Sequence record: OQ561750
DNA from: Escherichia phage LHE83
DNA length: 64,000 nt
Reading direction: 5' to 3' (one strand)
The first letter of the stretch is position 1; each line of letters starts with the position of its first letter. The notes below the pieces were generated by a model. That model did no database searches. It was not told where the DNA came from and was given only the letters and a program-made list of their open reading frames with translations. Positions 8,024 through 64,000 of this stretch are shown here, one piece after another. The position numbers and the translations under genes are program-made.

Positions 8024-8052
8024 GTTTACTTCTCCTCATGACATGTTATTAT
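8024..8052 (+). promoter_or_regulatory. early promoter in hairpin cassette (GTTTAC, 17 bp, TATTAT)
   Basis: Arms CTCCTCATG (8032-8040) and CATGAGGAG (8065-8073); 3' arm contains the SD of the next gene. Confidence 0.55.
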
Positions 8053-8079
8053 CTACCCTATCAACATGAGGAGAACAAA

Positions 8080-8589
8080 ATGAAAATTTATCGAGTCGAG
8101 TCATCGTTCAGTATCTTAGATAACAGCGATGTTATAGCAATCACTCACCAACAGTGCCGCCAATTAACACCGTATAGAGGCTCGTTTGATGAATGGAGCG
8201 AAGGTTGGTTATTAGAAGTAGGTTTCGACAGACCCAATTTTAGGCACCACCATACCAATAATAAAAATATTCCGCTACCAGGTCAAGACAAGTTGTTGGT
8301 GGAAAATTCTAATAAAAGCATTAGAACTAAGTGGAACCAGCCTGATTATGAAGGCTGTGATGATTATATTCCAGGTTGGTTTGTTAATCTCTACCATTTT
8401 GCTTTTGCCAGTGAGTATGATATGATGCGCTGGTTCACTCGTGAAGAGCGTGAAGAATTATCTTCTAAAGGATTCTATCTTGCCGTTTACGAAATCCCTG
8501 AAGATGAGGTTGTCATTGGTGGCCGCCAAGTAATGTTCCGCAAATCCCATGCTGAACTCGTAGATTTTATTGAATTGAGAACAATATGA
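8080..8589 (+). CDS. hypothetical protein (169 aa)
   Basis: ATG with GAGGAG SD; track ORF start 8038 falls inside the promoter. Confidence 0.5.
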   Translation: MKIYRVESSFSILDNSDVIAITHQQCRQLTPYRGSFDEWSEGWLLEVGFDRPNFRHHHTNNKNIPLPGQDKLLVENSNKSIRTKWNQPDYEGCDDYIPGWFVNLYHFAFASEYDMMRWFTREEREELSSKGFYLAVYEIPEDEVVIGGRQVMFRKSHAELVDFIELRTI

Positions 8590-18476: not shown

Positions 18477-18505
18477 GTGTACATCTCCATTAATCATGAT
18501 ATTAT
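18477..18505 (+). promoter_or_regulatory. early promoter in hairpin cassette (GTGTAC, 17 bp, TATTAT)
   Basis: 11-bp arms CATCTCCATTA (18482-18492) and TAATGGAGATG (18518-18528); 3' arm carries the SD. Confidence 0.5.
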
Positions 18506-18531
18506 AGACCTATCAACTAATGGAGATGATT

Positions 18532-21513: not shown

Positions 21514-21614
21514 GCCTTGGAGTCGAGTTCTTGTTACTCTGTATCTTTGCTGTTATTCTGGGCCTGGCGACAGGCTTAGCTATAGGTTTAATAGCAGCTC
21601 ACTTTAAAAAGTAA
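21510..21614 (+). CDS. small hydrophobic peptide (34 aa)
   Basis: ATGA overlap with gp52 stop; one TM-like segment; followed by terminator. Confidence 0.3.
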   Translation: MSLGVEFLLLCIFAVILGLATGLAIGLIAAHFKK

Positions 21615-21636
21615 GGAACCTTCGGGTTCCTTTTTT
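21615..21636 (+). terminator. intrinsic terminator (GGAACC-UUCG-GGUUCC plus U6)
   Basis: Identical hairpin to the one after soc. Confidence 0.75.
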
Positions 21637-21653
21637 GGTTTAGTGAAAAAAGT

Positions 21654-40525: not shown

Positions 40526-40565
40526 GGTCCCATACTGAGATAACAACTAAACACCGGAGAATAAA

Positions 40566-42248
<1,683 letters not shown>

Positions 42249-46889: not shown

Positions 46890-48034
46890 TTGAATTATAT
46901 GATAACTTGATGGCCCTGGTTAAAAACTCGACTAAATCTAAGTTCTTCTTTAAAGACTTTCAGAGTGCGCTAGGAGTCAACTATCGCATCTTTAGTTATA
47001 ACTATGCATCGTACAGTGATTGGTTGGAAGACGGCGCACTAGAGTGCCGAGGCATTATGTTTGAAATGGACGAGAACGGTCCAGTACGTATTGCTGCTCG
47101 TCCTATGCAAAAGTTCTTTAACCTTGACGAAAACCCTCTGACCATCGGTCTAGATTTGTCACCAGAAAATATTGACCTCGTAATGGCTAAGGAAGATGGT
47201 TCTCTGATTTCTACATTCATGGACCGACAGTATCTTTCTGTTAAATCTAAAGGCTCTATCCATTCATCAATGGTGCATGATTCTTTACGGTTCCTTCGTC
47301 TCCCTGAGAACGAGGCCTTTGCCGCACGTCTAGAAGAAATCACCAAAGCTGGGTATACCTGCAACCTTGAATATGTAGCACCTACCAACCGTATCGTTCT
47401 GGCTTACCAAGAAACAAACCTCATCCTGTTGAACGTTCGTAATAATGAAACAGGTGAATATATTCCGTATGCTGAATTGTTTAAAGATGGTGCCCTGCGT
47501 AAGCATTTGGTTGAAAGCTATGACCTCGCTGAAGGTGATTTCGTAGAAAACATCCGTAAGAAGGAAGGCATTGAAGGTTTCATCTTTGTACTGAAAGATG
47601 GTACGTTCTTTAAACTCAAAACCGCCTGGTACAGTGCACTGCATCATACCAAAGATTCCATTAACAACAACGAACGTTTGTTTGAAGTTGTAGTGGCTGG
47701 TGGAACTGATGACCTTCGTGGTCTGTTCAGTACAGATTCCTTTGCTATCGAGAAAATCGATGCCTTTGAACGCATCCATTTAGATTACCTAGAACAATCA
47801 TTAGCCTTGTTAGAAGCAGCTTACTCTCAACTCAAAGGTCGCGACCGTAAAGACTATGCCGTTACTGGACAGCTAATCCTTAAGGACTTCCCAGGGTTGT
47901 TCTCTATTCTTATGCAGGCGTACGTAGGTGGTATTAATTACGATACGGTTGTAGACCAGATTAACTCTGTGTTCTTGAAAAATCATAAGGCCCAAATCCC
48001 TGAAAAATATTTGAAAGAAATTGTGGTAGAGTAG
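46886..48034 (+). CDS. rnlA: RNA ligase 1
   Basis: 382 aa; ligase motif I KEDGSL; colinear with T4 Rnl1 as recalled (YRIFSYNYASYSDW, ECRGIMFEMD). Confidence 0.85.
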   Translation: MIELYDNLMALVKNSTKSKFFFKDFQSALGVNYRIFSYNYASYSDWLEDGALECRGIMFEMDENGPVRIAARPMQKFFNLDENPLTIGLDLSPENIDLVMAKEDGSLISTFMDRQYLSVKSKGSIHSSMVHDSLRFLRLPENEAFAARLEEITKAGYTCNLEYVAPTNRIVLAYQETNLILLNVRNNETGEYIPYAELFKDGALRKHLVESYDLAEGDFVENIRKKEGIEGFIFVLKDGTFFKLKTAWYSALHHTKDSINNNERLFEVVVAGGTDDLRGLFSTDSFAIEKIDAFERIHLDYLEQSLALLEAAYSQLKGRDRKDYAVTGQLILKDFPGLFSILMQAYVGGINYDTVVDQINSVFLKNHKAQIPEKYLKEIVVE

Positions 48035-48062
48035 TTTACATCTCCTCATGATGTGTTAGTAT
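48034..48062 (+). promoter_or_regulatory. early promoter in hairpin cassette (GTTTAC, 17 bp, TAGTAT)
   Basis: Arms CTCCTCAT (48042-48049) and ATGAGGAG (48077-48084); 3' arm is the SD. Confidence 0.55.
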
Positions 48063-48092
48063 AGACTTACCAACTAATGAGGAGAAAACAAA

Positions 48093-54252: not shown

Positions 54253-54414
54253 ATGGCTAAGAAAGAAGTTAAAGTTGTTGATGGCTCCTCCAAACGCGCT
54301 GGTTACAAGCGTGCGTCCAACAAGCGAATCAATCAGGTAACTGATAAACTTCAGGCTCGTGCTCGTGCGGTATTGCGTGCCGATGCAGCTTGCTTTGGTA
54401 AGCCGAAAGCATAA
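54253..54414 (+). CDS. small basic protein (53 aa)
   Basis: Hand-translated ORF after a 260-bp non-coding stretch; followed by terminator; weak SD. Confidence 0.3.
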   Translation: MAKKEVKVVDGSSKRAGYKRASNKRINQVTDKLQARARAVLRADAACFGKPKA

Positions 54415-54419
54415 GTTCA

Positions 54420-54444
54420 GGGACTCTTCGGAGTCCCATTTTTG
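54420..54444 (+). terminator. intrinsic terminator (GGGACUC-UUCG-GAGUCCC then AUUUUUG)
   Basis: 7-bp stem, UUCG loop, T-run. Confidence 0.7.
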
Positions 54445-54464
54445 TTTCTAAATCTTTAAAAAAG

Positions 54465-54493
54465 GTATACATCTCCGGTAGGCGTGATACTAT
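54465..54493 (+). promoter_or_regulatory. early promoter (GTATAC, 17 bp, TACTAT) with 45-nt leader duplicated at 54894-54941
   Basis: Leader TATAGACCTGTACCAAATAATACGAAAACAAACTGGAGAATAAAA is repeated before the next gene. Confidence 0.5.
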
Positions 54494-54534
54494 AGACCTG
54501 TACCAAATAATACGAAAACAAACTGGAGAATAAA

Positions 54535-54867
54535 ATGAAAACTGTAAATCTGAATGCATCTGTTAAAGCTAAATGTTTCAACGGTGAATATCAAGAAACC
54601 ATGTGGGTCCTGACTGCAGTTGAAGGTGATATCATCGAAGTCGAAACAACTGAAGGTATGGGTACTGATTTTACATTCACCATCGAGCTTCACAACTTCT
54701 TTACAGGTTGGATTTATGAACTGAAAACTGTAATTACTGGTCGTATTGAAGAAAACAAAATTGGTGAATTCTATTACGTTAATGCCCGTACACGCGCTGA
54801 ACGTCTGATTGCTCAGATGAAAAAAGTTGGTAAACTTGATATGAAAAATTGGAATGTCGTGAAATAA
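54535..54867 (+). CDS. hypothetical protein (110 aa)
   Basis: ATG with GGAGAATAAA SD. Confidence 0.5.
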   Translation: MKTVNLNASVKAKCFNGEYQETMWVLTAVEGDIIEVETTEGMGTDFTFTIELHNFFTGWIYELKTVITGRIEENKIGEFYYVNARTRAERLIAQMKKVGKLDMKNWNVVK

Positions 54868-54869
54868 AT

Positions 54870-54899
54870 GTTTTACTTTGGTACAGGTTGTGTTATTAT
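54870..54899 (+). promoter_or_regulatory. early promoter in hairpin (GTTTTAC, 17 bp, TATTAT); second copy of duplicated leader
   Basis: Arms GGTACAGGT (54880-54888) and ACCTGTACC (54902-54910). Confidence 0.5.
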
Positions 54900-54941
54900 A
54901 GACCTGTACCAAATAATACGAAAACAAACTGGAGAATAAAA

Positions 54942-55307
54942 ATGAACTACATCAACTTCGAACGTAAATATGTTTCTAACGGTATCGCTGGTTCTTCCGA
55001 AGTTATTTGCCTGTGGAAACACGAAAACGGTACAGTGTGCGAAATCGAACAGTGCATGACTCCTAACTACGTTTATATGCGCTTTGAAAATGGTATTACG
55101 GTTTCAATCACAATGGAAGGTTCTACTTTTAAAATCGCTTTAGATGATGATTTCCGTCAACGTGATTTAGGTACCCATCCTTGCTGGAACGGTGTTAATC
55201 GTAAGCTTCTGGTTAAAACTTGGATTCGTCACATCCTGAGCAACCGAGCTAAACCTGAACACCTGGAAGCAATCTTTGATGTAGTTCTGAACGAATTCGA
55301 CATCTAA
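54942..55307 (+). CDS. hypothetical protein (121 aa)
   Basis: ATG with GGAGAATAAAA SD; same leader as previous gene but unrelated protein. Confidence 0.5.
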   Translation: MNYINFERKYVSNGIAGSSEVICLWKHENGTVCEIEQCMTPNYVYMRFENGITVSITMEGSTFKIALDDDFRQRDLGTHPCWNGVNRKLLVKTWIRHILSNRAKPEHLEAIFDVVLNEFDI

Positions 55308-55317
55308 TCTTAAAAAT

Positions 55318-55333
55318 GGAGGCTTCGGCCTCC
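55318..55333 (+). other. RNA stem-loop (GGAGGC-UUCG-GCCUCC), weak U-tract
   Basis: Same hairpin sequence as at 16776. Confidence 0.45.
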
Positions 55334-55831: not shown

Positions 55832-56044
55832 ATGTTTAAGAAATTGATTCAGAAATTATTAGGTACGGAAATGGTCGAAGTGACTTATCGTGTAACTGAT
55901 TTATCTCCTGTGCATCCACAAGATGAACCATATACTAAAACAATTAAAATGCTGAAATCTGACGGCGGATTATCTATTAAAGACCGTCTACCTGGTTATG
56001 GTCATTGGGCTGATGTAGAGATTATCAGTGTCAAAGATATTTAA
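55832..56044 (+). CDS. hypothetical protein (70 aa), paralogue of next ORF
   Basis: Shares LVEVTYRV.DLSP and IISVKD motifs with 56054-56266. Confidence 0.45.
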   Translation: MFKKLIQKLLGTEMVEVTYRVTDLSPVHPQDEPYTKTIKMLKSDGGLSIKDRLPGYGHWADVEIISVKDI

Positions 56045-56053
56045 GGAGTCTTC

Positions 56054-56266
56054 ATGATTAAGAAATTATTTAAAAAGCTGTTTGGCTTGGAACTGGTTGA
56101 AGTGACTTATCGTGTTATTGATTTATCACCGCCATATGCTTGCGATGAAGATGCTATTAAAACTGTTGTTATGCGAAAAACATATCGCGGGCAGTCAATT
56201 AAAGAAAGATTGCCAGACCATGGCATGTGGTATGCAACCAAGATTATCAGTGTCAAAGATGTCTGA
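56054..56266 (+). CDS. hypothetical protein (70 aa), paralogue of previous ORF
   Basis: Tandem duplicate. Confidence 0.45.
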   Translation: MIKKLFKKLFGLELVEVTYRVIDLSPPYACDEDAIKTVVMRKTYRGQSIKERLPDHGMWYATKIISVKDV

Positions 56267-59404: not shown

Positions 59405-61489
59405 ATGACCGAACAATTAAATGAAGTGTTTGAGTCCGAAGGCACACTGCCTACAGTAAACTTGAACCCAAAACTTAAAGTACCCCAGATTTGGAAGATT
59501 GGTGACGCAGAATCCCAATTAGTGGCGCGTATGGTATCCTACGCTTCTGAAGGTGATGCTATTAAACAGGTTAAGATGGGTGATAAATATGCCCACGTTA
59601 TCCTTATGAGCCTTTCAGCTAAAGGTTCGCCTGCCGAACTTAAAGGTGGCCTAGGCCCTACTCCCGTAGATGCGATTAATACTATTTTTGATATGGTTTA
59701 TGACCAAGTTAAAAAGCTTCGTATGGATGCCGTGATGTTCCGTTTCCCTACTAAGAAAATGAAAGGTCAAGGCCCTATCGTTCAACGGATTATCCAACGT
59801 TTGGTAGCACAGAAAACAGGTGGACGTTTTAAAGTAGTTCCGGCTATGTACCAATTTACCGGTAAACATACTTACATCCTGGTAGTTCGTAAACAAGCTG
59901 ATATAGAAGATATCAAAGGTATGCCTGGAATTAATGCTGAATTGTATACTAAGGTAGATTCTGATGTCGGTGAAGTTTATATTTCTAAAAAAGAAGGCGT
60001 GCAGGTTACTAAAGAAACTGCTATCGCCGGTAGTATTGCTAAGGTTGAAGAACGTCGCACTGATAAAATGGTTATAACCAAGACTAAGATTTCTCGACGT
60101 GCTATTGCAGCAAGTCAATCGTTAGAATCTTATCGTAATGAAAGTGAGCTGTTTAAGAAATATGAAGCTACTGCAGTAGATTTTAATAAACCGGCAACAG
60201 TTCCATTAATCCCTGAGGCCCAGGAAATGGTTACTAATAACAATTCTCCTGCGGCTAAAAATAAGGTTGCTAATATAGTGGCTGAAGGCACTGCTGAAGA
60301 ATTGCATTACGATTACAAATTGTTCCCACTTCACGGTATTGGCGAAATCCAAGAGAAAATTAAAGAGAAAATCCTTACGGCCATCAAAAACGAACCTTTG
60401 ACATCTGTTAAAGCCCTAGAAAAATATGCCTCTACTATTAATACCATTTTCGAAGAATACAAAGGCGAGTGGCTGGCTATTCATAACAGAACCCGTAAAG
60501 GCCAACCTGATGACCTTTGGAACGAATTGACAGAGGCCAAGTGGAAAGCGGCCAAGACCAAGTTCATTAAAAAACGCGTGTATAGTTTTGCTGGTGTAGG
60601 TGGCGGTATTATGGTCGATATTACTATTGCTCGTGAGGGTTCTAAATATACTCCATCACAAAAGCGTGGTATCAGAGAATATTGTGGTTCAGGATATACA
60701 GACATAAATAATCTTCTTTTAGGACGTTATAATCCTCAGAACTATGAGGTTATGAGCGAAAAAGATATCGAATCTGCAGTTAATAATTTGGATTCTGCTT
60801 TTGAAAATGGCGACCGTATACCAGAGGGCATCACAGTTTATCGTGCCCAGAGTATGACTGCTCCTATATACGAAGCACTAGTTAAAAATAAAGTGTTTTA
60901 TTTTAGAAATTTTGTATCCACTTCATTGACCCCTATAATTTTCGGACGTTTTGGTGTTACGCACGCTGGTATCGGTCTTTTAGAACCTGAAGTTCGCAAT
61001 GAATTGACAGTCGATAAAAATGAAGAAGGAATAACTATTAATCCTAATGAAATAAGAGCATATAAAGAAAATCCTGATTATGTTAAAGTTCAAATAGGAT
61101 GGGCTATTGATGGGGCCCATAAAGTTAATGTCGTATATCCAGGAAATCTCGGAATAGCAACTGAAGCCGAAGTTATTCTACCGCGTGGATTAATGGTCAA
61201 AGTTAATAAAATAACAGATGCTTCTAATAATGATGGAACAACATCTAGTAATACAAAACTCATTCAAGCTGAAGTTATGACAACAGATGAGCTTCAAGAA
61301 TCTGTGGTATATGATGGTGATGTACTAATGGAAACCGGCGAGTTGGTCGTATATCAAGATGACTTCGATACTTCCGAAAGCCCCTTATCTTTTGATTCAT
61401 TTGTTAAATCTACACGGTTTGATGTACTGCCTCTTTTGGCTTCATGCATAGACCTCTATGACATCCCAGAAAAATTCATCCAAGGGTAA
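59405..61489 (+). CDS. alt: Alt-type ADP-ribosyltransferase, copy 1
   Basis: 694 aa; N-terminal 250 aa colinear with T4 Alt as recalled (VTK..AIA.SIA...R.D..VI.K.KISRRAIA.SQSLES); C-terminal ART elements VYRAQ, FVSTSL, EAEVILPRG. Confidence 0.8.
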   Translation: MTEQLNEVFESEGTLPTVNLNPKLKVPQIWKIGDAESQLVARMVSYASEGDAIKQVKMGDKYAHVILMSLSAKGSPAELKGGLGPTPVDAINTIFDMVYDQVKKLRMDAVMFRFPTKKMKGQGPIVQRIIQRLVAQKTGGRFKVVPAMYQFTGKHTYILVVRKQADIEDIKGMPGINAELYTKVDSDVGEVYISKKEGVQVTKETAIAGSIAKVEERRTDKMVITKTKISRRAIAASQSLESYRNESELFKKYEATAVDFNKPATVPLIPEAQEMVTNNNSPAAKNKVANIVAEGTAEELHYDYKLFPLHGIGEIQEKIKEKILTAIKNEPLTSVKALEKYASTINTIFEEYKGEWLAIHNRTRKGQPDDLWNELTEAKWKAAKTKFIKKRVYSFAGVGGGIMVDITIAREGSKYTPSQKRGIREYCGSGYTDINNLLLGRYNPQNYEVMSEKDIESAVNNLDSAFENGDRIPEGITVYRAQSMTAPIYEALVKNKVFYFRNFVSTSLTPIIFGRFGVTHAGIGLLEPEVRNELTVDKNEEGITINPNEIRAYKENPDYVKVQIGWAIDGAHKVNVVYPGNLGIATEAEVILPRGLMVKVNKITDASNNDGTTSSNTKLIQAEVMTTDELQESVVYDGDVLMETGELVVYQDDFDTSESPLSFDSFVKSTRFDVLPLLASCIDLYDIPEKFIQG

Positions 61490-61492
61490 ATA

Positions 61493-63538
61493 ATGGAAAA
61501 TTTAAATGAGGTTTTTGATAGTGATTCCGCTAAAAACTATCCAGTAACAAATCTTAAACCGGGTTCCGGTATTCCACAGATTTTCTCTATCCAAGCACCA
61601 GGTAATGATAATCTGGTTGCTCGTATGGTATCTTATGCGTCTCAAGGAGACGCTATTAAAATGGTTAAGCCGGGCGACAAATATGTTCATGTTATTTTGA
61701 TGAGTTTGTCTGCTAAGGGTAGCCCAGCCGAGTTGAAAGGTGGGTTAGGTTCTGACCCACTTGGTACGCTGAATACCATTTTTGATACTGTATACGAACA
61801 AGTAAACAAACTTAAAATGGATGCAGTTCTTTTCCGGTTCCCTACCAAGAAAATGAAAGGTAAGGGTCCTACTGTTCAACGTGTATTGGCACGTTTGGCG
61901 ATGGCTCGTACTGGCGGCAAGTTTAAAGTTGTCGATGATATGTATCAATTTACAGGCAAACATACATACGTTTTACTGGTCCGTAAACAAGCTAATATTG
62001 AGGACATAAAAGGTATGCCTGAAATTGATGCAGACCTTTACACTAAGGTTGAGTCTAAAGTTGGTGAGGTTTATGTATCCAAGAAAACAGGCCAATCGGT
62101 AACCAAAATAGAAGCACTATCTGCTAGTATAGCGGCAGTCGAAGAAAAACGTATGGATAAGGCTGTTATTACTACTACCAAGATTTCTAGGCGTGCTGTA
62201 GCCGCAGCCCAGTATTCTCCTCGAGATGAAGTTCCGGAAGGTTGGAATGAGATTGATGCAGAGGCATCAAAATTTAGTGCCCCGGCAACAGCGGAACTTA
62301 TCGATGATTATGAAGAACTAGAAATTTTTATTCAACCTTCTGAAACGAATACTATGGAGCGTATGCGCGCGGCAGATATGGCTATGCGAGCAAACAGTGT
62401 TTGGAAAGAAGAAATTCGAGTCGAAGACTCTGACCCAATTTTTAACCGTATGCATCGTGAACTTAAACGTGCTCCTGTCGGCAGTATGAAGCAGATGCAG
62501 ATTTTTGCCGAATCATGTGCAGAGGTTCTTAACCTTCGCAAAGCTGCATTTATTGAAAGAAAAATGAATGAGGCTCCTCCTAATATGGATGCGGCAGAAT
62601 ATGCAGCAGAGCTTTGGGAACAAGAGTATGCTCAACGTATAAGTGCTGCTGTTACCGACTTTGCTAATGAAGCGTCAGAAAGTGTTATGCATTTTACAGC
62701 CAGTTATAGCGATAATCGATTTGAGTATGAGCAGCGTGAGGCTATTTCTTCTTATTGTGGCCAATATTATACCGATGTTAATAATTATTTGTTGGGTAAT
62801 TATTATGAAGAGGATGCAGAATTTATTGATAGTTATCGTGTAATTGAAGTAATTAATGATATGGATGCAGCATTTGAAATTGGCCATAAATTGCCACCTG
62901 ATATTACACTTTGGCGTGGTCAATATTTAAATGTTAACACTTTTGATAAAATCAAACACTCAAAATTGTTTTATTTCAGGAACTATGTATCAACGTCCCT
63001 TAAGCCGATTATCTTTGGCGGCTGGGTATCAAACGTCGCAATGGCCGCAGTTCATCAGGACTATCGCGCTGGGACATCTTTCCAAGGCGATAATGAAATT
63101 GTTCTTCCAAGTATGCTGACGAGTTCCGAAAATACAATGATGAACATCGGTTGGAAAATTTCCGGTGCAGACTCTATTAACGTAATTGTGCCAGGTAAAT
63201 TGTCAGGTTCTCCAACAGAACAAGAGGTTATTCTTCCACGTGGAACTACTGTTAAGATTACTAAAATTACAGATGCCTCATATAAAGGAAACTACAACAC
63301 CAAATTACTGGAAGCTGATATCCAGACCACAGACCAACTAGCAGAAAATGCAGTTATCTACGATGGTGATGCATTGATGGAAACCGGCGAATTGGTTGTT
63401 TACCAAGGCGTAGAAACAGAGACCGACAACCCTGTGTCTTTTGATTCATTCGTCAAATCGACCAAGGTGGATATAATGCCTATTTTAGCTTCATGTATTA
63501 ATTTTGACGAAACCCCAGAAAAATTCACCCAAGGGTAA
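61493..63538 (+). CDS. Alt-type ADP-ribosyltransferase, copy 2
   Basis: 681 aa; conserved Alt N-terminus; ART elements LWRGQ, YVSTSL, EQEVILPRG; central region diverged from copy 1. Confidence 0.8.
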   Translation: MENLNEVFDSDSAKNYPVTNLKPGSGIPQIFSIQAPGNDNLVARMVSYASQGDAIKMVKPGDKYVHVILMSLSAKGSPAELKGGLGSDPLGTLNTIFDTVYEQVNKLKMDAVLFRFPTKKMKGKGPTVQRVLARLAMARTGGKFKVVDDMYQFTGKHTYVLLVRKQANIEDIKGMPEIDADLYTKVESKVGEVYVSKKTGQSVTKIEALSASIAAVEEKRMDKAVITTTKISRRAVAAAQYSPRDEVPEGWNEIDAEASKFSAPATAELIDDYEELEIFIQPSETNTMERMRAADMAMRANSVWKEEIRVEDSDPIFNRMHRELKRAPVGSMKQMQIFAESCAEVLNLRKAAFIERKMNEAPPNMDAAEYAAELWEQEYAQRISAAVTDFANEASESVMHFTASYSDNRFEYEQREAISSYCGQYYTDVNNYLLGNYYEEDAEFIDSYRVIEVINDMDAAFEIGHKLPPDITLWRGQYLNVNTFDKIKHSKLFYFRNYVSTSLKPIIFGGWVSNVAMAAVHQDYRAGTSFQGDNEIVLPSMLTSSENTMMNIGWKISGADSINVIVPGKLSGSPTEQEVILPRGTTVKITKITDASYKGNYNTKLLEADIQTTDQLAENAVIYDGDALMETGELVVYQGVETETDNPVSFDSFVKSTKVDIMPILASCINFDETPEKFTQG

Positions 63539-63541
63539 ATA

Positions 63542-64000
63542 ATGGAAAATTTAAACGAAGTTTTTGATAAAAGCGATAAAAAAAATTACCCAGTAACAAA
63601 TCTTAAACCTGGCTCAGGCGTACCGCAGATTTTTGCGGTACATGCTCCTGGTAATGACAATTTAGTAGCACGTATGGTATCTTATGCGTCTGAAGGCGAC
63701 GCTATTAAGATGGTTAAAAATGGTGATAAGTACGTCCATGTTATCTTAATGAGTTTATCTGCTAAAGGCGCTCCGGCAGAACTCAAGGGTGGTTTGGGTA
63801 CCGATCCACTCGGTACACTGAACACCATTTTCGATACCATATATGAACAAATAAACAAACTTAAAATGGACGCGGTTTTGTTCCGTTTCCCTACTAAGAA
63901 AATGAAAGGTAAAGGTCCCACCGTTCAGCGCGTATTAGCTCGCTTGGCTATGGCTCGTACCGGTGGTAAGTTTAAAGTTGTTGACGACATGTTCCAATTC
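63542..64000 (+). CDS. Alt-type ADP-ribosyltransferase, copy 3 (3' end outside window)
   Basis: 153 codons open to window end; N-terminus most similar to copy 2; same junction sequence TAAATAATGGAAAATTTAAA. Confidence 0.75.
   Translation, partial: MENLNEVFDKSDKKNYPVTNLKPGSGVPQIFAVHAPGNDNLVARMVSYASEGDAIKMVKNGDKYVHVILMSLSAKGAPAELKGGLGTDPLGTLNTIFDTIYEQINKLKMDAVLFRFPTKKMKGKGPTVQRVLARLAMARTGGKFKVVDDMFQF

Follow-up and report, generated by a model that had tools for sequence, protein, structure and literature searches.

Identical leaders of the adjacent early genes 30.8 and 30.7 in a Dhakavirus as a probable product of, and substrate for, recombination

In T4-type phages, promoter-early stem-loop (PeSL) cassettes underlie a modular shuffling of genes (Arbiol et al. 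2010, PMC2839356; Comeau et al. 2014, PMC4122927). A PeSL is an intergenic composite in which an AT-rich stretch and a stem-loop terminator are combined with an early promoter of the sigma70 type, a Shine–Dalgarno sequence and an ATG; small early genes whose functions are unknown lie between neighbouring copies, and where close relatives differ by replacements or indels, the junctions fall in the element. In RB49 and phi1, mini-circles have been shown to arise by crossing over in the interval from the -10 box to the ATG (PMC2839356). For RegB/S1 cleavage, the consensus is the 11-nt GGAGRAYARAA, with GGAGAAUAAAA as the T4 optimum, and a single-stranded context is required (Durand et al. 2006, PMC1702504). 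The T4 30.7 message, an early transcript in experimental use, is a RegB substrate that is cut at its Shine–Dalgarno GGAG (PMC9409239). In the T4 genes e, soc, 49 and I-TevI, the promoter lies inside an inhibitory hairpin (review, PMC3014915). T4 early promoters, RegB sites and PeSL-mediated shuffling are already established, and the leader pair that we describe here, before genes 30.8 and 30.7, does not overturn the current understanding; it is a local example of the gene shuffling already described in T4-type phages.

The early promoters and RegB sites that regulate the T4 gene cluster lying upstream of DNA ligase gene 30 were reportedly described by Truncaite et al. 2006 (Virology 344:378; cited in PMC1702504 and PMC9409239). 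Our window, by which we mean the whole 64-kb stretch of phage LHE83 DNA that was analysed (record OQ561750), comes from a Dhakavirus, that is, a JS98/WG01-like T4-type coliphage, with 98.5% identity to Dhakavirus WG01. Roughly 900 genomes have a match to the locus. The gene order cd-31.2-31.1-31-rIII-30.9-30.8-30.7-...-30 is common to the window, JS98, IME08 and T4, and all the features discussed below lie on the + strand. The upstream neighbour, gene 30.9 (54253–54414, 53 aa; annotated as 30.9 in JS98 and IME08; PHROG 1427), is a Gaprivervirus-type allele, with a DNA identity of 99% to Gaprivervirus MN01 versus 90% to IME08. It is followed by an intrinsic terminator detected by a terminator scan (54420–54447; GGGACTC-TTCG-GAGTCCC and then ATTTTTGTTT), consisting of a stem–loop at 54420–54437 and a T-run (RNA fold -13.5 kcal/mol, z = -4.0), which is the stem–loop part of a PeSL-type cassette before 30.8. 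Gene 30.8 (54535–54867, 110 aa, the T4-type allele) matches Pfam PF06019 Phage_30_8 (E = 2.8e-48), and gene 30.7 (54942–55307, 121 aa; DNA identity 98% to IME08 and 85% to T4) matches PF06919 Phage_T4_Gp30_7 (E = 2.2e-51). Between 30.7 and the ribosome-binding site of 30.6 lies a GC-rich stem–loop (55318–55333, GGAGGC-TTCG-GCCTCC; RNA fold -14.8 kcal/mol, z = -3.4) that belongs to a three-copy repeat family within the window (D14) and in which the terminator scan found no proper T-run on the + strand. The locus shares with its T4 orthologue the early promoters before 30.8 and 30.7, the terminator after 30.9, the inverted repeat GGTACAGG...CCTGTACC at the 30.7 promoter and the GGAGAATAAA Shine–Dalgarno sites; it differs in that the two T4 leaders are dissimilar, whereas the Dhakavirus pair is identical.

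A sequence-only reading had pointed to a 45-nt duplication in front of the two genes, and this exact repeat was borne out, although its coordinates were one base off: the 45-mer TATAGACCTGTACCAAATAATACGAAAACAAACTGGAGAATAAAA occurs at 54491–54535 (copy 1, before 30.8) and 54897–54941 (copy 2, before 30.7). The window contains no third copy even when three mismatches are allowed, and none of 100 dinucleotide shuffles contained any 45-mer match. Likeness extends further upstream, to 52 nt with 96% identity (54484–54535 versus 54890–54941; family D17), the longer versions beginning with GTGaTAcTATAG in copy 1 and GTGtTAtTATAG in copy 2. The repeat unit is 406 bp, with 30.8 as the segment between both copies. 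Copy 1 comprises the end of the -10 box, the start-site region, the 5′ untranslated region, the Shine–Dalgarno sequence and the A of the ATG. That the repeat ends just before an ATG holds for copy 2 (ATG at 54942) but not for copy 1, in which the final A of the 45-mer is itself the A of the ATG at 54535, so that the Shine–Dalgarno-to-ATG spacing of the two genes differs by one base. The first 9 nt of the repeat (TATAGACCT) are the early-promoter family consensus of the phage, with at least eight copies in the window (D3/D5–D7), and the last 11 nt are the consensus RegB/Shine–Dalgarno motif; the 25 nt at the centre (GTACCAAATAATACGAAAACAAACT) occur in this leader pair alone. The informative part of the repeat is less than the full 45 nt.

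Each leader is preceded by an early promoter. P30.8 (54465–54493) has the -35 box GTATAC (54465–54470), a 17-nt spacer with a TGn (54471–54487) and the -10 box TACTAT (54488–54493); it belongs to the early-promoter repeat family of the window (D5: 54458–54499, 76% identity to the reference) and matches the early-promoter regular expression, with a weak -35 box that leaves it under the threshold of a generic sigma70 scan. P30.7 (54871–54899), which is orthologous to the T4 promoter before 30.7, has a TTTTAC/TTTACT -35 box located 3 nt from the 30.8 stop codon, a TGn-containing spacer and the -10 box TATTAT (54894–54899), and matches both the early-promoter expression and the sigma70 scan (TTTACT-16-TATTAT with TG). 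Both conform to the early-promoter pattern of PeSLs (TTTACW-N17-TAYWAT). Start sites are expected at about 54500 for P30.8 and 54906 for P30.7. Middle promoters were considered, and inspection of the sequence upstream of either -10 box revealed no TGCTT MotA box. The sequence-only reading had described the repeat as regulatory DNA, which is apt in so far as it spans the end of the -10 box, the 5′ leader and the ribosome-binding site; however, the whole promoter is absent, only the last 3 nt of the early sigma70 -10 box fall within the repeat, and the -35 boxes and spacers are unlike.

At its 3′ end, each copy carries GGAGAATAAAA (54525–54535 and 54931–54941), which is both the Shine–Dalgarno sequence of the gene that follows and a match to the RegB/S1 consensus GGAGRAYARAA. 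The 64 kb contain four such matches, versus 0.34 expected, and both leader copies are among them. The resulting GGAGAATAAA(A)ATG agrees with the Shine–Dalgarno sequence and start codon of PeSLs. In fold predictions, the RegB site, which overlaps the Shine–Dalgarno sequence 3–4 nt upstream of the ATG, is single-stranded. The predicted 5′ untranslated region of copy 1 (about 35 nt, A-rich) is unstructured (minimum free energy (MFE) -0.7 kcal/mol, z = +1.25), and the two leaders (predicted MFE -0.7 and -0.6 kcal/mol) are less structured than 180–195 of 200 shuffles. A search of Rfam for known structured RNAs gave one sub-threshold chance match (mir-12, E = 0.77). By analogy with T4, the 30.8 and 30.7 leaders would be cleaved by RegB in the source phage.

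The resemblance to PeSLs extends to the overall composite, to the flanking of small early genes by neighbouring copies and, as described below, to junctions between close relatives that fall in the element; the published PeSL crossovers fall in the interval from -10 box to ATG, exactly the part that is repeated at 30.8 and 30.7. Several features are nevertheless unlike a canonical PeSL. An upstream terminator stem–loop is present at copy 1 only, the hairpin at copy 2 enclosing the promoter and having no T-run. What is repeated is the transcribed leader rather than a promoter or stem–loop consensus, and it is found at one locus rather than dispersed. In addition, the gene between the copies belongs to the conserved T4 set and varies by allele, unlike a present-or-absent ORFan, and neither a deletion nor a circle product was observed.

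Identical DNA before two genes could reflect duplication of the genes themselves. The 110-aa and 121-aa proteins, which had been noted to share no obvious similarity, indeed gave no BLASTP match, belong to separate Pfam and PHROG families and reached an HHalign probability of 0.08%. On these grounds a tandem gene duplication was rejected: homologous proteins would have pointed to a simple gene duplication, and gp30.8 and gp30.7 are unrelated. The AlphaFold model of gp30.7 (pLDDT 77.5) had no fold match in the PDB, and the model of gp30.8 is unreliable (pLDDT 49). An ancient tandem duplication of a promoter–leader–gene unit, with proteins diverged beyond recognition, could draw on the adjacency and similar sizes of the genes and on the beta-rich region followed by C-terminal helices that is predicted for both proteins, with the caveat of the gp30.8 model. 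We regard it as very improbable, given the protein comparisons and the fact that non-coding DNA could not remain 100% identical while the adjacent coding DNA lost all resemblance; the dissimilarity of the T4 leaders also argues against it.

Searching related genomes for the 45-mer returned the leader in 45 independently deposited phage records, in at most two places each, and in six IMG/VR viral contigs, each with exactly two copies; metagenome contigs gave no match. The leader is confined to the genus Dhakavirus and to the 30.8/30.7 locus, where it is always paired at a distance of 406 or 443 bp. An assembly or sequencing artefact can be practically dismissed when the same pair recurs in this many independent records and contigs. 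The same distribution contradicts the idea of a portable module, since no further copy was found in the window, at other loci or outside Dhakavirus, and the supposedly unrelated cargo proved to be the conserved, syntenic genes 30.8 and 30.7, in the same order as in T4. An integron-like cassette was considered as an analogy only.

Within Dhakavirus, the paralogous leaders are 98% identical (100% over the central 25 nt), whereas identity to orthologous leaders is only 51–89%, a pattern that points to concerted evolution of the leaders by recombination or gene conversion. In T4, by contrast, the paralogous leaders share 65% identity overall and 40% in the centre, with the Shine–Dalgarno sequence alone common to both. 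Because the 30.8 and 30.7 leaders of T4 and Gaprivervirus are dissimilar, the identity is not ancestral, and the identical pair is apparently a Dhakavirus-specific derived state. Jiaodavirus (28 nt) and lineage L048 (25 nt, with two genes intervening) have independent leader pairs, each specific to its lineage. Among Dhakaviruses, copy 1 is polymorphic at leader positions 8, 24 and 34, and copy 2 shows no variation over its first 33 nt in any of those examined; the copy-2 base (C) is present in copy 1 of the window and of IME341, which carry unlike 30.8 alleles. From these sequences we infer the direction of the conversion and its mechanism. The perfect identity in the window is probably the result of a fresh conversion or crossover.

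An explanation by function alone, in which all 45 nt are needed for polymerase escape, S1/RegB recognition and translation and no recombination between the copies occurs, seems improbable. It would suit the first 9 and last 11 nt, which are consensus elements under obvious selection, and the unusually unstructured leader predicted by folding. However, the central 25 nt change freely from one genus to another, as they do from leader to leader within T4, Gaprivervirus and Mosigvirus, all with the same genes and RegB system, and in several separate lineages the paralogues are closer than the orthologues, each lineage having its own sequence, for which convergence cannot account. Purifying selection on a functional leader could still contribute to the identity, to a degree that sequence alone cannot separate from conversion.

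The breakpoints of allele exchange coincide with both copies. Gene 30.8 exists as two divergent alleles (54% DNA identity; 110 versus 122 aa): that of the window is 77% identical in DNA to T4 30.8 and 54% to the 122-aa allele of IME08, dhaeg and PSD2002. Compared with phages carrying the 122-aa allele, identity is at least 93%, falls to 33–60% exactly between the copies and returns to 90–100% from 54869. In PSD2002, ESCO10 and VR5, a junction lies inside copy 2, the 3′ end of the leader being replaced along with a diverged 30.7 allele. A further junction, in the terminator stem, marks the return from Gaprivervirus-type 30.9 to Dhakavirus-type sequence, and at the terminator before 30.8 phage C6 has an extra ORF and a second terminator inserted. 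Replacements and indels between close relatives at 30.8 therefore have junctions in the element, as in PeSLs, and the locus is a mosaic in which phylogenetic affinity changes from gene to gene. Recombination between cassettes, as suggested by the sequence-only reading, fits these data best; that it was recent does not follow, the pair being genus-wide.

We consider it likely that the repeat is the downstream half shared by two neighbouring cassettes for the start of early transcription and translation, those of 30.8 and 30.7, homogenised by recombination and serving as a substrate for the exchange of 30.8 alleles. Each cassette would keep its own -35 box and spacer and be identical from the -10 box on. 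Host RNA polymerase would fire P30.8 and P30.7 immediately after infection, the two messages would be translated from identical ribosome-binding sites, and a later RegB cut within GGAG, with ribosomal protein S1, would inactivate both. Homologous recombination or gene conversion between the neighbouring cassettes would make the leaders identical, the Dhakavirus leader being a putative mosaic of a 30.7-type 5′ half, which contains the 3′ arm of the conserved P30.7 hairpin, and a 30.8-type 3′ half. The 45–52 bp of homology on either side of 30.8 would then act as the recombination substrate through which divergent alleles are swapped as a cassette, as in PeSL modular shuffling.

Alternatively, 30.8 or its present allele may have arrived as a circle of about 406 bp, akin to a PeSL mini-circle, that crossed over once within the leader; this would necessarily leave one identical copy on each side of the insert. 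Such a scar would be in keeping with direct repeats that enclose exactly one gene plus the P30.7 -35 box and spacer, with the presence of two alleles in the same bracket (406 or 443 bp) and with the mini-circle precedent of RB49 and phi1 (PMC2839356). We think it unlikely: T4, Mosigvirus, Gaprivervirus and genera further removed all have 30.8 at this position, also in genomes with unlike leaders, so the gene is ancestral at the locus rather than inserted, and a double crossover in the flanks accounts equally well for allele replacement. Flanking homology is sufficient for such replacement at 30.8, and a special element is unnecessary. A query with a synthetic 30.9–leader–30.7 junction found no empty site or 30.8-deleted genome among the best 60 records, all of which align in two pieces with 30.8 kept, and no single-copy or triple-copy leader was found in viral and metagenome contigs. 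As no natural product of recombination between the copies was found, the repeats may rarely recombine together, or the products may be selected against. Insertion by a circle is best viewed as a possible sub-mechanism of the homogenised-cassette explanation.

The promoters differ in the structures that they would form with the shared leader. P30.7 is enclosed by a hairpin (54877–54913) with its 5′ arm TTTGGTACAGGT (54877–54888) in the promoter spacer, the -10 box in the loop and its 3′ arm ACCTGTACCAAA (54902–54913) at positions 6–17 of leader copy 2. Its predicted RNA fold (-20.2 kcal/mol, z = -4.2) was equalled in stability by none of 200 shuffles. The hairpin was found in every lineage examined, with arm sequences that vary by lineage. 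In a MAFFT alignment, the arms are out of register because stem and loop lengths vary; covariation was assessed by folding each lineage separately and by a matrix of own versus cross-lineage duplexes, which replaced a column-wise count on that alignment. Own-lineage duplexes reached -20.5 kcal/mol versus -10.3 kcal/mol across lineages, and the own pairing was best in eight of nine cases. As at T4 e, soc, 49 and I-TevI, the 5′ arm lies upstream of the start site, so only read-through RNA from 30.8 can adopt this putatively regulatory hairpin. The 3′ arm covers the GGAG Shine–Dalgarno sequence, as in those T4 genes, in some genera (L043–L046 and L056); in Dhakavirus, T4 and Mosigvirus it spans +1 to +12, so there is no evident direct masking of the ribosome-binding site. 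The promoters also differ in timing, P30.7 being an early internal promoter and those of the T4 genes late.

At P30.8, a tentative read-through hairpin (54472–54529; centroid structure) pairs the spacer sequence TCTCCGGT (54472–54479) with ACTGGAGA in the leader (54522–54529), with a duplex energy of -12.6 kcal/mol (z = -4.3 versus shuffled spacers). Full Watson–Crick pairing is restored in dhaeg (ACCGGAGA) and ESCO10 (spacer CTCCAGT), and lineage specificity is weak (own -11.4 versus cross -9.5 kcal/mol). This hairpin might mask the Shine–Dalgarno/RegB site, and would do so only in RNA begun upstream. A general rule that early-promoter spacers carry an anti-Shine–Dalgarno sequence was rejected, as only about 4 of roughly 19 promoters in the window do so and lineage specificity at P30.8 is weak.

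A speculative reading, to which we give little credence, is that one leader is placed in two promoter-encoded contexts, the P30.7 spacer pairing with its 5′ end and the anti-Shine–Dalgarno TCTCCGGT of P30.8 with its 3′ end. RNA started at the promoter would be naked, and hence translatable and RegB-sensitive; read-through RNA would be folded, and either masked from ribosomes and RegB or, after a RegB cut, a 3′ stabiliser of the upstream message. Conceivably, the 5′ arm at P30.7 pairs in turn with leader 1 (long-range) and with leader 2 (local), which would link 30.8 expression to that of 30.7. If true for T4-type early promoters with a spacer CTCC and a GGAG Shine–Dalgarno sequence, the two-context reading would describe a largely unrecognised layer of early-gene control, and it would also account for copy 2 being the invariant donor when the leaders are homogenised.

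In annotation, the repeat can serve as a marker of two early promoters and of two RegB sites; in phage engineering, it flags a 406-bp segment that may be liable to loop out or to be replaced. The homogenised leaders at 30.8 and 30.7 offer a genus-wide natural example of short conserved regulatory DNA acting as recombination handles in T4-type phages, at a locus where the nearest relative of neighbouring genes varies gene by gene. They would also illustrate the reverse effect, which the PeSL papers do not stress: recombination homogenises the handles, independently in several genera, and so would maintain the substrate for shuffling.

An exact 45-nt sequence occurs twice on the + strand, at 54491–54535 and 54897–54941, ahead of ORFs of 110 and 121 amino acids (aa), respectively. 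The sequence-only reading had recognized this two-fold repeat, with coordinates one base off. No third copy was found in the window, even at three mismatches, and 0 of 100 dinucleotide shuffles contained a match. Continued upstream, the similarity of the copies spans 52 nt in all, with two mismatches (repeat family D17), and the central 25 nt of the 45-mer are private to this pair. The A of the first ATG (54535) is the last A of copy 1, whereas the second ATG (54942) lies outside the repeat, directly after copy 2. Identity of the region to Escherichia phage WG01 is 98.5%, and every best match (JS98, Bp7, IME08, QL01 and others) is a Dhakavirus, a T4-type member of the Straboviridae. The local gene order (cd, 31.2, 31.1, 31, rIII, 30.9, 30.8, 30.7 ... 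30, encoding DNA ligase) matches the annotation of JS98 and IME08, and also T4. By Pfam, the shorter protein belongs to Phage_30_8 (E = 2.8e-48) and the longer one to Phage_T4_Gp30_7 (E = 2.2e-51). These products, gp30.8 and gp30.7, fall into different PHROGs, both of unknown function; BLASTP shows no relation between them and profile–profile comparison gives an HHalign probability of 0.08%. The two proteins are therefore unrelated, as had been proposed, but their genes are conserved, syntenic T4 genes and not arbitrary cargo. For gp30.7, structure prediction gave a model of moderate quality (pLDDT 77.5) that matched nothing in the PDB; the gp30.8 model (pLDDT 49) is too poor to use.

Two tandem arrays lie further downstream. 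At the gene 30.4 position, two adjoining 70-aa ORFs (55832–56044 and 56054–56266; 78% identical in their first 77 nt, D13) without a Pfam match form a tandem duplication; JS98 and KIT01 have one such ORF and WG01, dhaeg and PSD2002 have two, so the copy number is polymorphic. Adjoining the ligase gene on its downstream side (59405–64000) are three paralogous units of about 2.05–2.09 kb, 70–80% identical (D1/D2/D4/D8), the third of which leaves the window. An ADP-ribosyltransferase domain (PF03496) is found in both complete ORFs, of 694 aa (E = 4e-36) and 681 aa (E = 7e-21); these are Alt-like paralogues.

The repeat is regulatory DNA, as the earlier reading held. Its first 9 nt (TATAGACCT), with the preceding GTGaTAc, match the -10/start-site consensus of the early-promoter family of the phage (aaaaGTGTTTACttctcc...catGATACTATAGACCT), which recurs at least eight times in the window (D3/D5–D7). 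The promoter of gene 30.7 (P30.7; TTTACT-16-TATTAT with TG) is a textbook match in a sigma70 scan, and that of gene 30.8 (P30.8; GTATAC-17-TACTAT with TGn), a member of the early-promoter family (D5), has a weaker -35 box. The two differ in -35 box and spacer, and the repeat begins within the -10 box. An intrinsic terminator (54420–54437, followed by a T-run; terminator scan and RNA fold) lies upstream of P30.8. The last 11 nt, GGAGAATAAAA, are the Shine–Dalgarno sequence and are identical, letter by letter, to the optimum T4 site for the endoribonuclease RegB acting with ribosomal protein S1, for which the consensus is single-stranded GGAGRAYARAA (Durand et al. 2006, PMC1702504). The early 30.7 transcript of T4 serves as a standard substrate for RegB, which cuts it at the Shine–Dalgarno GGAG (PMC9409239). 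The 64-kb window contains four consensus sites, where 0.34 would be expected; the only matches outside the repeat (8070–8080 and 40556–40566) each lie just 5′ of an ATG downstream of an early-type promoter. From the inferred start sites, the leader RNAs are predicted to be essentially unstructured (minimum free energies of -0.7 and -0.6 kcal/mol) and less folded than at least 90% of shuffles, as required both for a RegB/S1 site and for strong ribosome binding. The leader region matched no Rfam family.

Searching relatives for the 45-mer and the ORFs that follow it, a check that had been suggested, found it in 45 phage records; all of these are Dhakavirus, and none has it at more than two places. 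In every relative inspected the copies precede 30.8 and 30.7. Six IMG/VR contigs carry exactly two copies each, 406 or 443 nt apart, and the metagenome collection gave no leader match. The pair itself is confirmed. Its distribution leads us to reject a dispersed portable module, one of the two readings first offered for the repeat.

The accompanying suggestion of recombination fared better. Dhakavirus 30.8 comes in two alleles: one is T4-like and encodes 110 aa, the other encodes 122 aa and is shared with Gaprivervirus and Mosigvirus (54% identity between the two in DNA, 45% in protein). Compared with IME08, dhaeg and PSD2002, the window is at least 93% identical until about 54520, 33–60% identical over the 30.8 ORF, and again 90–100% identical from 54869, indicating a swapped segment whose limits are leader copy 1 on one side and P30.7 with copy 2 on the other. 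PSD2002, ESCO10 and VR5 have an additional junction within copy 2 (...ACAAAC|...), beyond which their 30.7 allele is diverged. Upstream, 30.9 of the window is 99% identical to a Gaprivervirus versus 90% to other Dhakaviruses, and this switch in affinity falls inside the shared terminator stem. Escherichia phage C6 carries, between the 30.9 terminator and P30.8, an extra GC-rich, proline-rich ORF of 118 aa (504–860 of its locus), absent from the other Dhakaviruses examined, with a second terminator of its own. Across the 30.9–30.6 block, the nearest relative differs gene by gene. Products of recombination between the copies (30.8 deletion, single or triple leaders) were not found in the databases. 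Elsewhere, an exact 30-nt terminator-like hairpin with a T-run (TAAGGAACCTTCGGGTTCCTTTTTTGGTTT; D11) occurs at 1643–1672 and 21612–21641, 20 kb apart; the 3′ end of the C6 insertion has the same stem, GGAACCTTCGGGTTCC. These repeats are candidates for further shared recombination handles.

In T4, the same two promoters are present and the leaders share only the Shine–Dalgarno sequence (65% identity overall, 40% in the centre); Gaprivervirus resembles T4 in this. By contrast, the paralogous Dhakavirus leaders are 98% identical (100% in the centre), and each is only 51–89% identical to its orthologues in other genera. Klebsiella phage K65PH164 (Jiaodavirus) has a private 28-nt sequence (GGTTACTATAGACCTGTACCACCCAAAC) before both 30.8 and 30.7, which are separated by an extra gene, and lineage L048, one of the relatives' loci, has a private 25 nt common to both leaders, with two genes between. 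One or two extra genes (about 160–175 aa) separate 30.8 from 30.7 in K65PH164 (locus positions 1731–2240) and in loci L042–L060 (about 520–1540); even so, in Jiaodavirus and more distant T4-type genera the two leaders can have lineage-specific sequence in common. Closer similarity between paralogues than between orthologues, recurring with a different sequence in each lineage, is the hallmark of concerted evolution through recombination or gene conversion.

The Dhakavirus leader itself looks mosaic. Its 3′ half (AAAACAAACTGGAG) corresponds to the 30.8 leader type of Mosigvirus and T4, in which the 30.7 leaders end in AAACATCT(C/G)GGAG, and its 5′ half (ACCTGTACCAAA) appears 30.7-linked, being the 3′ arm of an inverted repeat with its 5′ arm in the P30.7 spacer only. 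Copy 2 shows no variation over its first 33 nt among the Dhakaviruses seen, whereas copy 1 is polymorphic at positions 8 (A, T or C), 24 and 34; this would fit a role of copy 2 as the constrained donor of the 5′ half. At position 8, copy 1 of the window and of IME341 has the base of copy 2, despite their differing 30.8 alleles.

This inverted repeat places P30.7 inside a hairpin: a 12-bp stem of TTTGGTACAGGT (54877–88, promoter spacer) and ACCTGTACCAAA (54902–13, copy 2) surrounds the -10 box (-20.2 kcal/mol, z = -4.2). With the start site in the loop or 3′ arm, folding is possible only in RNA read through from 30.8. All lineages sampled have a P30.7 hairpin. Its arms are unrelated in sequence from lineage to lineage and include some G.U pairs; the energies are -17 to -26 kcal/mol (z = -4.6 to -6.1; 0 of 300 shuffles as stable). 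Spacer–leader pairing averages -20.5 kcal/mol within a lineage versus -10.3 across lineages, and is strongest within the own lineage in eight of nine. In five relatives' loci (L043–L046 and L056), the 3′ arm falls on the GGAG Shine–Dalgarno sequence instead, as in the T4 e, soc, 49 and I-TevI arrangement, the classic logic of a promoter inside an inhibitory hairpin (PMC3014915). RNA structure also shields GGAG from RegB (PMC3014915). By inference, the Dhakavirus hairpin could mask read-through RNA or, alternatively, could stabilize the 3′ end of the 30.8 mRNA once RegB cuts the 30.7 site. At P30.8 there is a weaker analogue (TCTCCGGT in the spacer with ACTGGAGA in the leader; -12.6 kcal/mol, z = -4.3) with poor lineage specificity in the own-versus-cross comparison. 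Besides 54465–54535, early promoters at 8024–8076, 18477–18529 and 48034–48086 lie inside significant hairpins (-14.8 to -16.4 kcal/mol, z = -3.7 to -4.9) that pair a spacer TCTCC (5′ arm) with the downstream GGAG Shine–Dalgarno sequence (3′ arm) and could form in read-through RNA only. Such hairpins occur at about four of some 19 early-type promoters in the window.

The T4-type promoter-early stem–loop cassette (PeSL) combines terminator, early promoter, Shine–Dalgarno sequence and ATG and mediates modular shuffling (PMC2839356; PMC4122927); experiments have placed its crossovers between the -10 box and the ATG, and under 50 bp of homology suffices for T4 recombination (PMC2839356). The Dhakavirus pair resembles it in that allele replacement, junctions and the C6 insertion fall at leader or terminator elements. 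Unlike a canonical PeSL, copy 2 has no upstream terminator and the homology is private to a single locus. Taken together, the locus is a well-resolved PeSL-type pair of T4 early promoters with RegB leaders in concerted evolution, of a kind already known; the promoter-embedded hairpins are the part of the finding that most deserves experiment.
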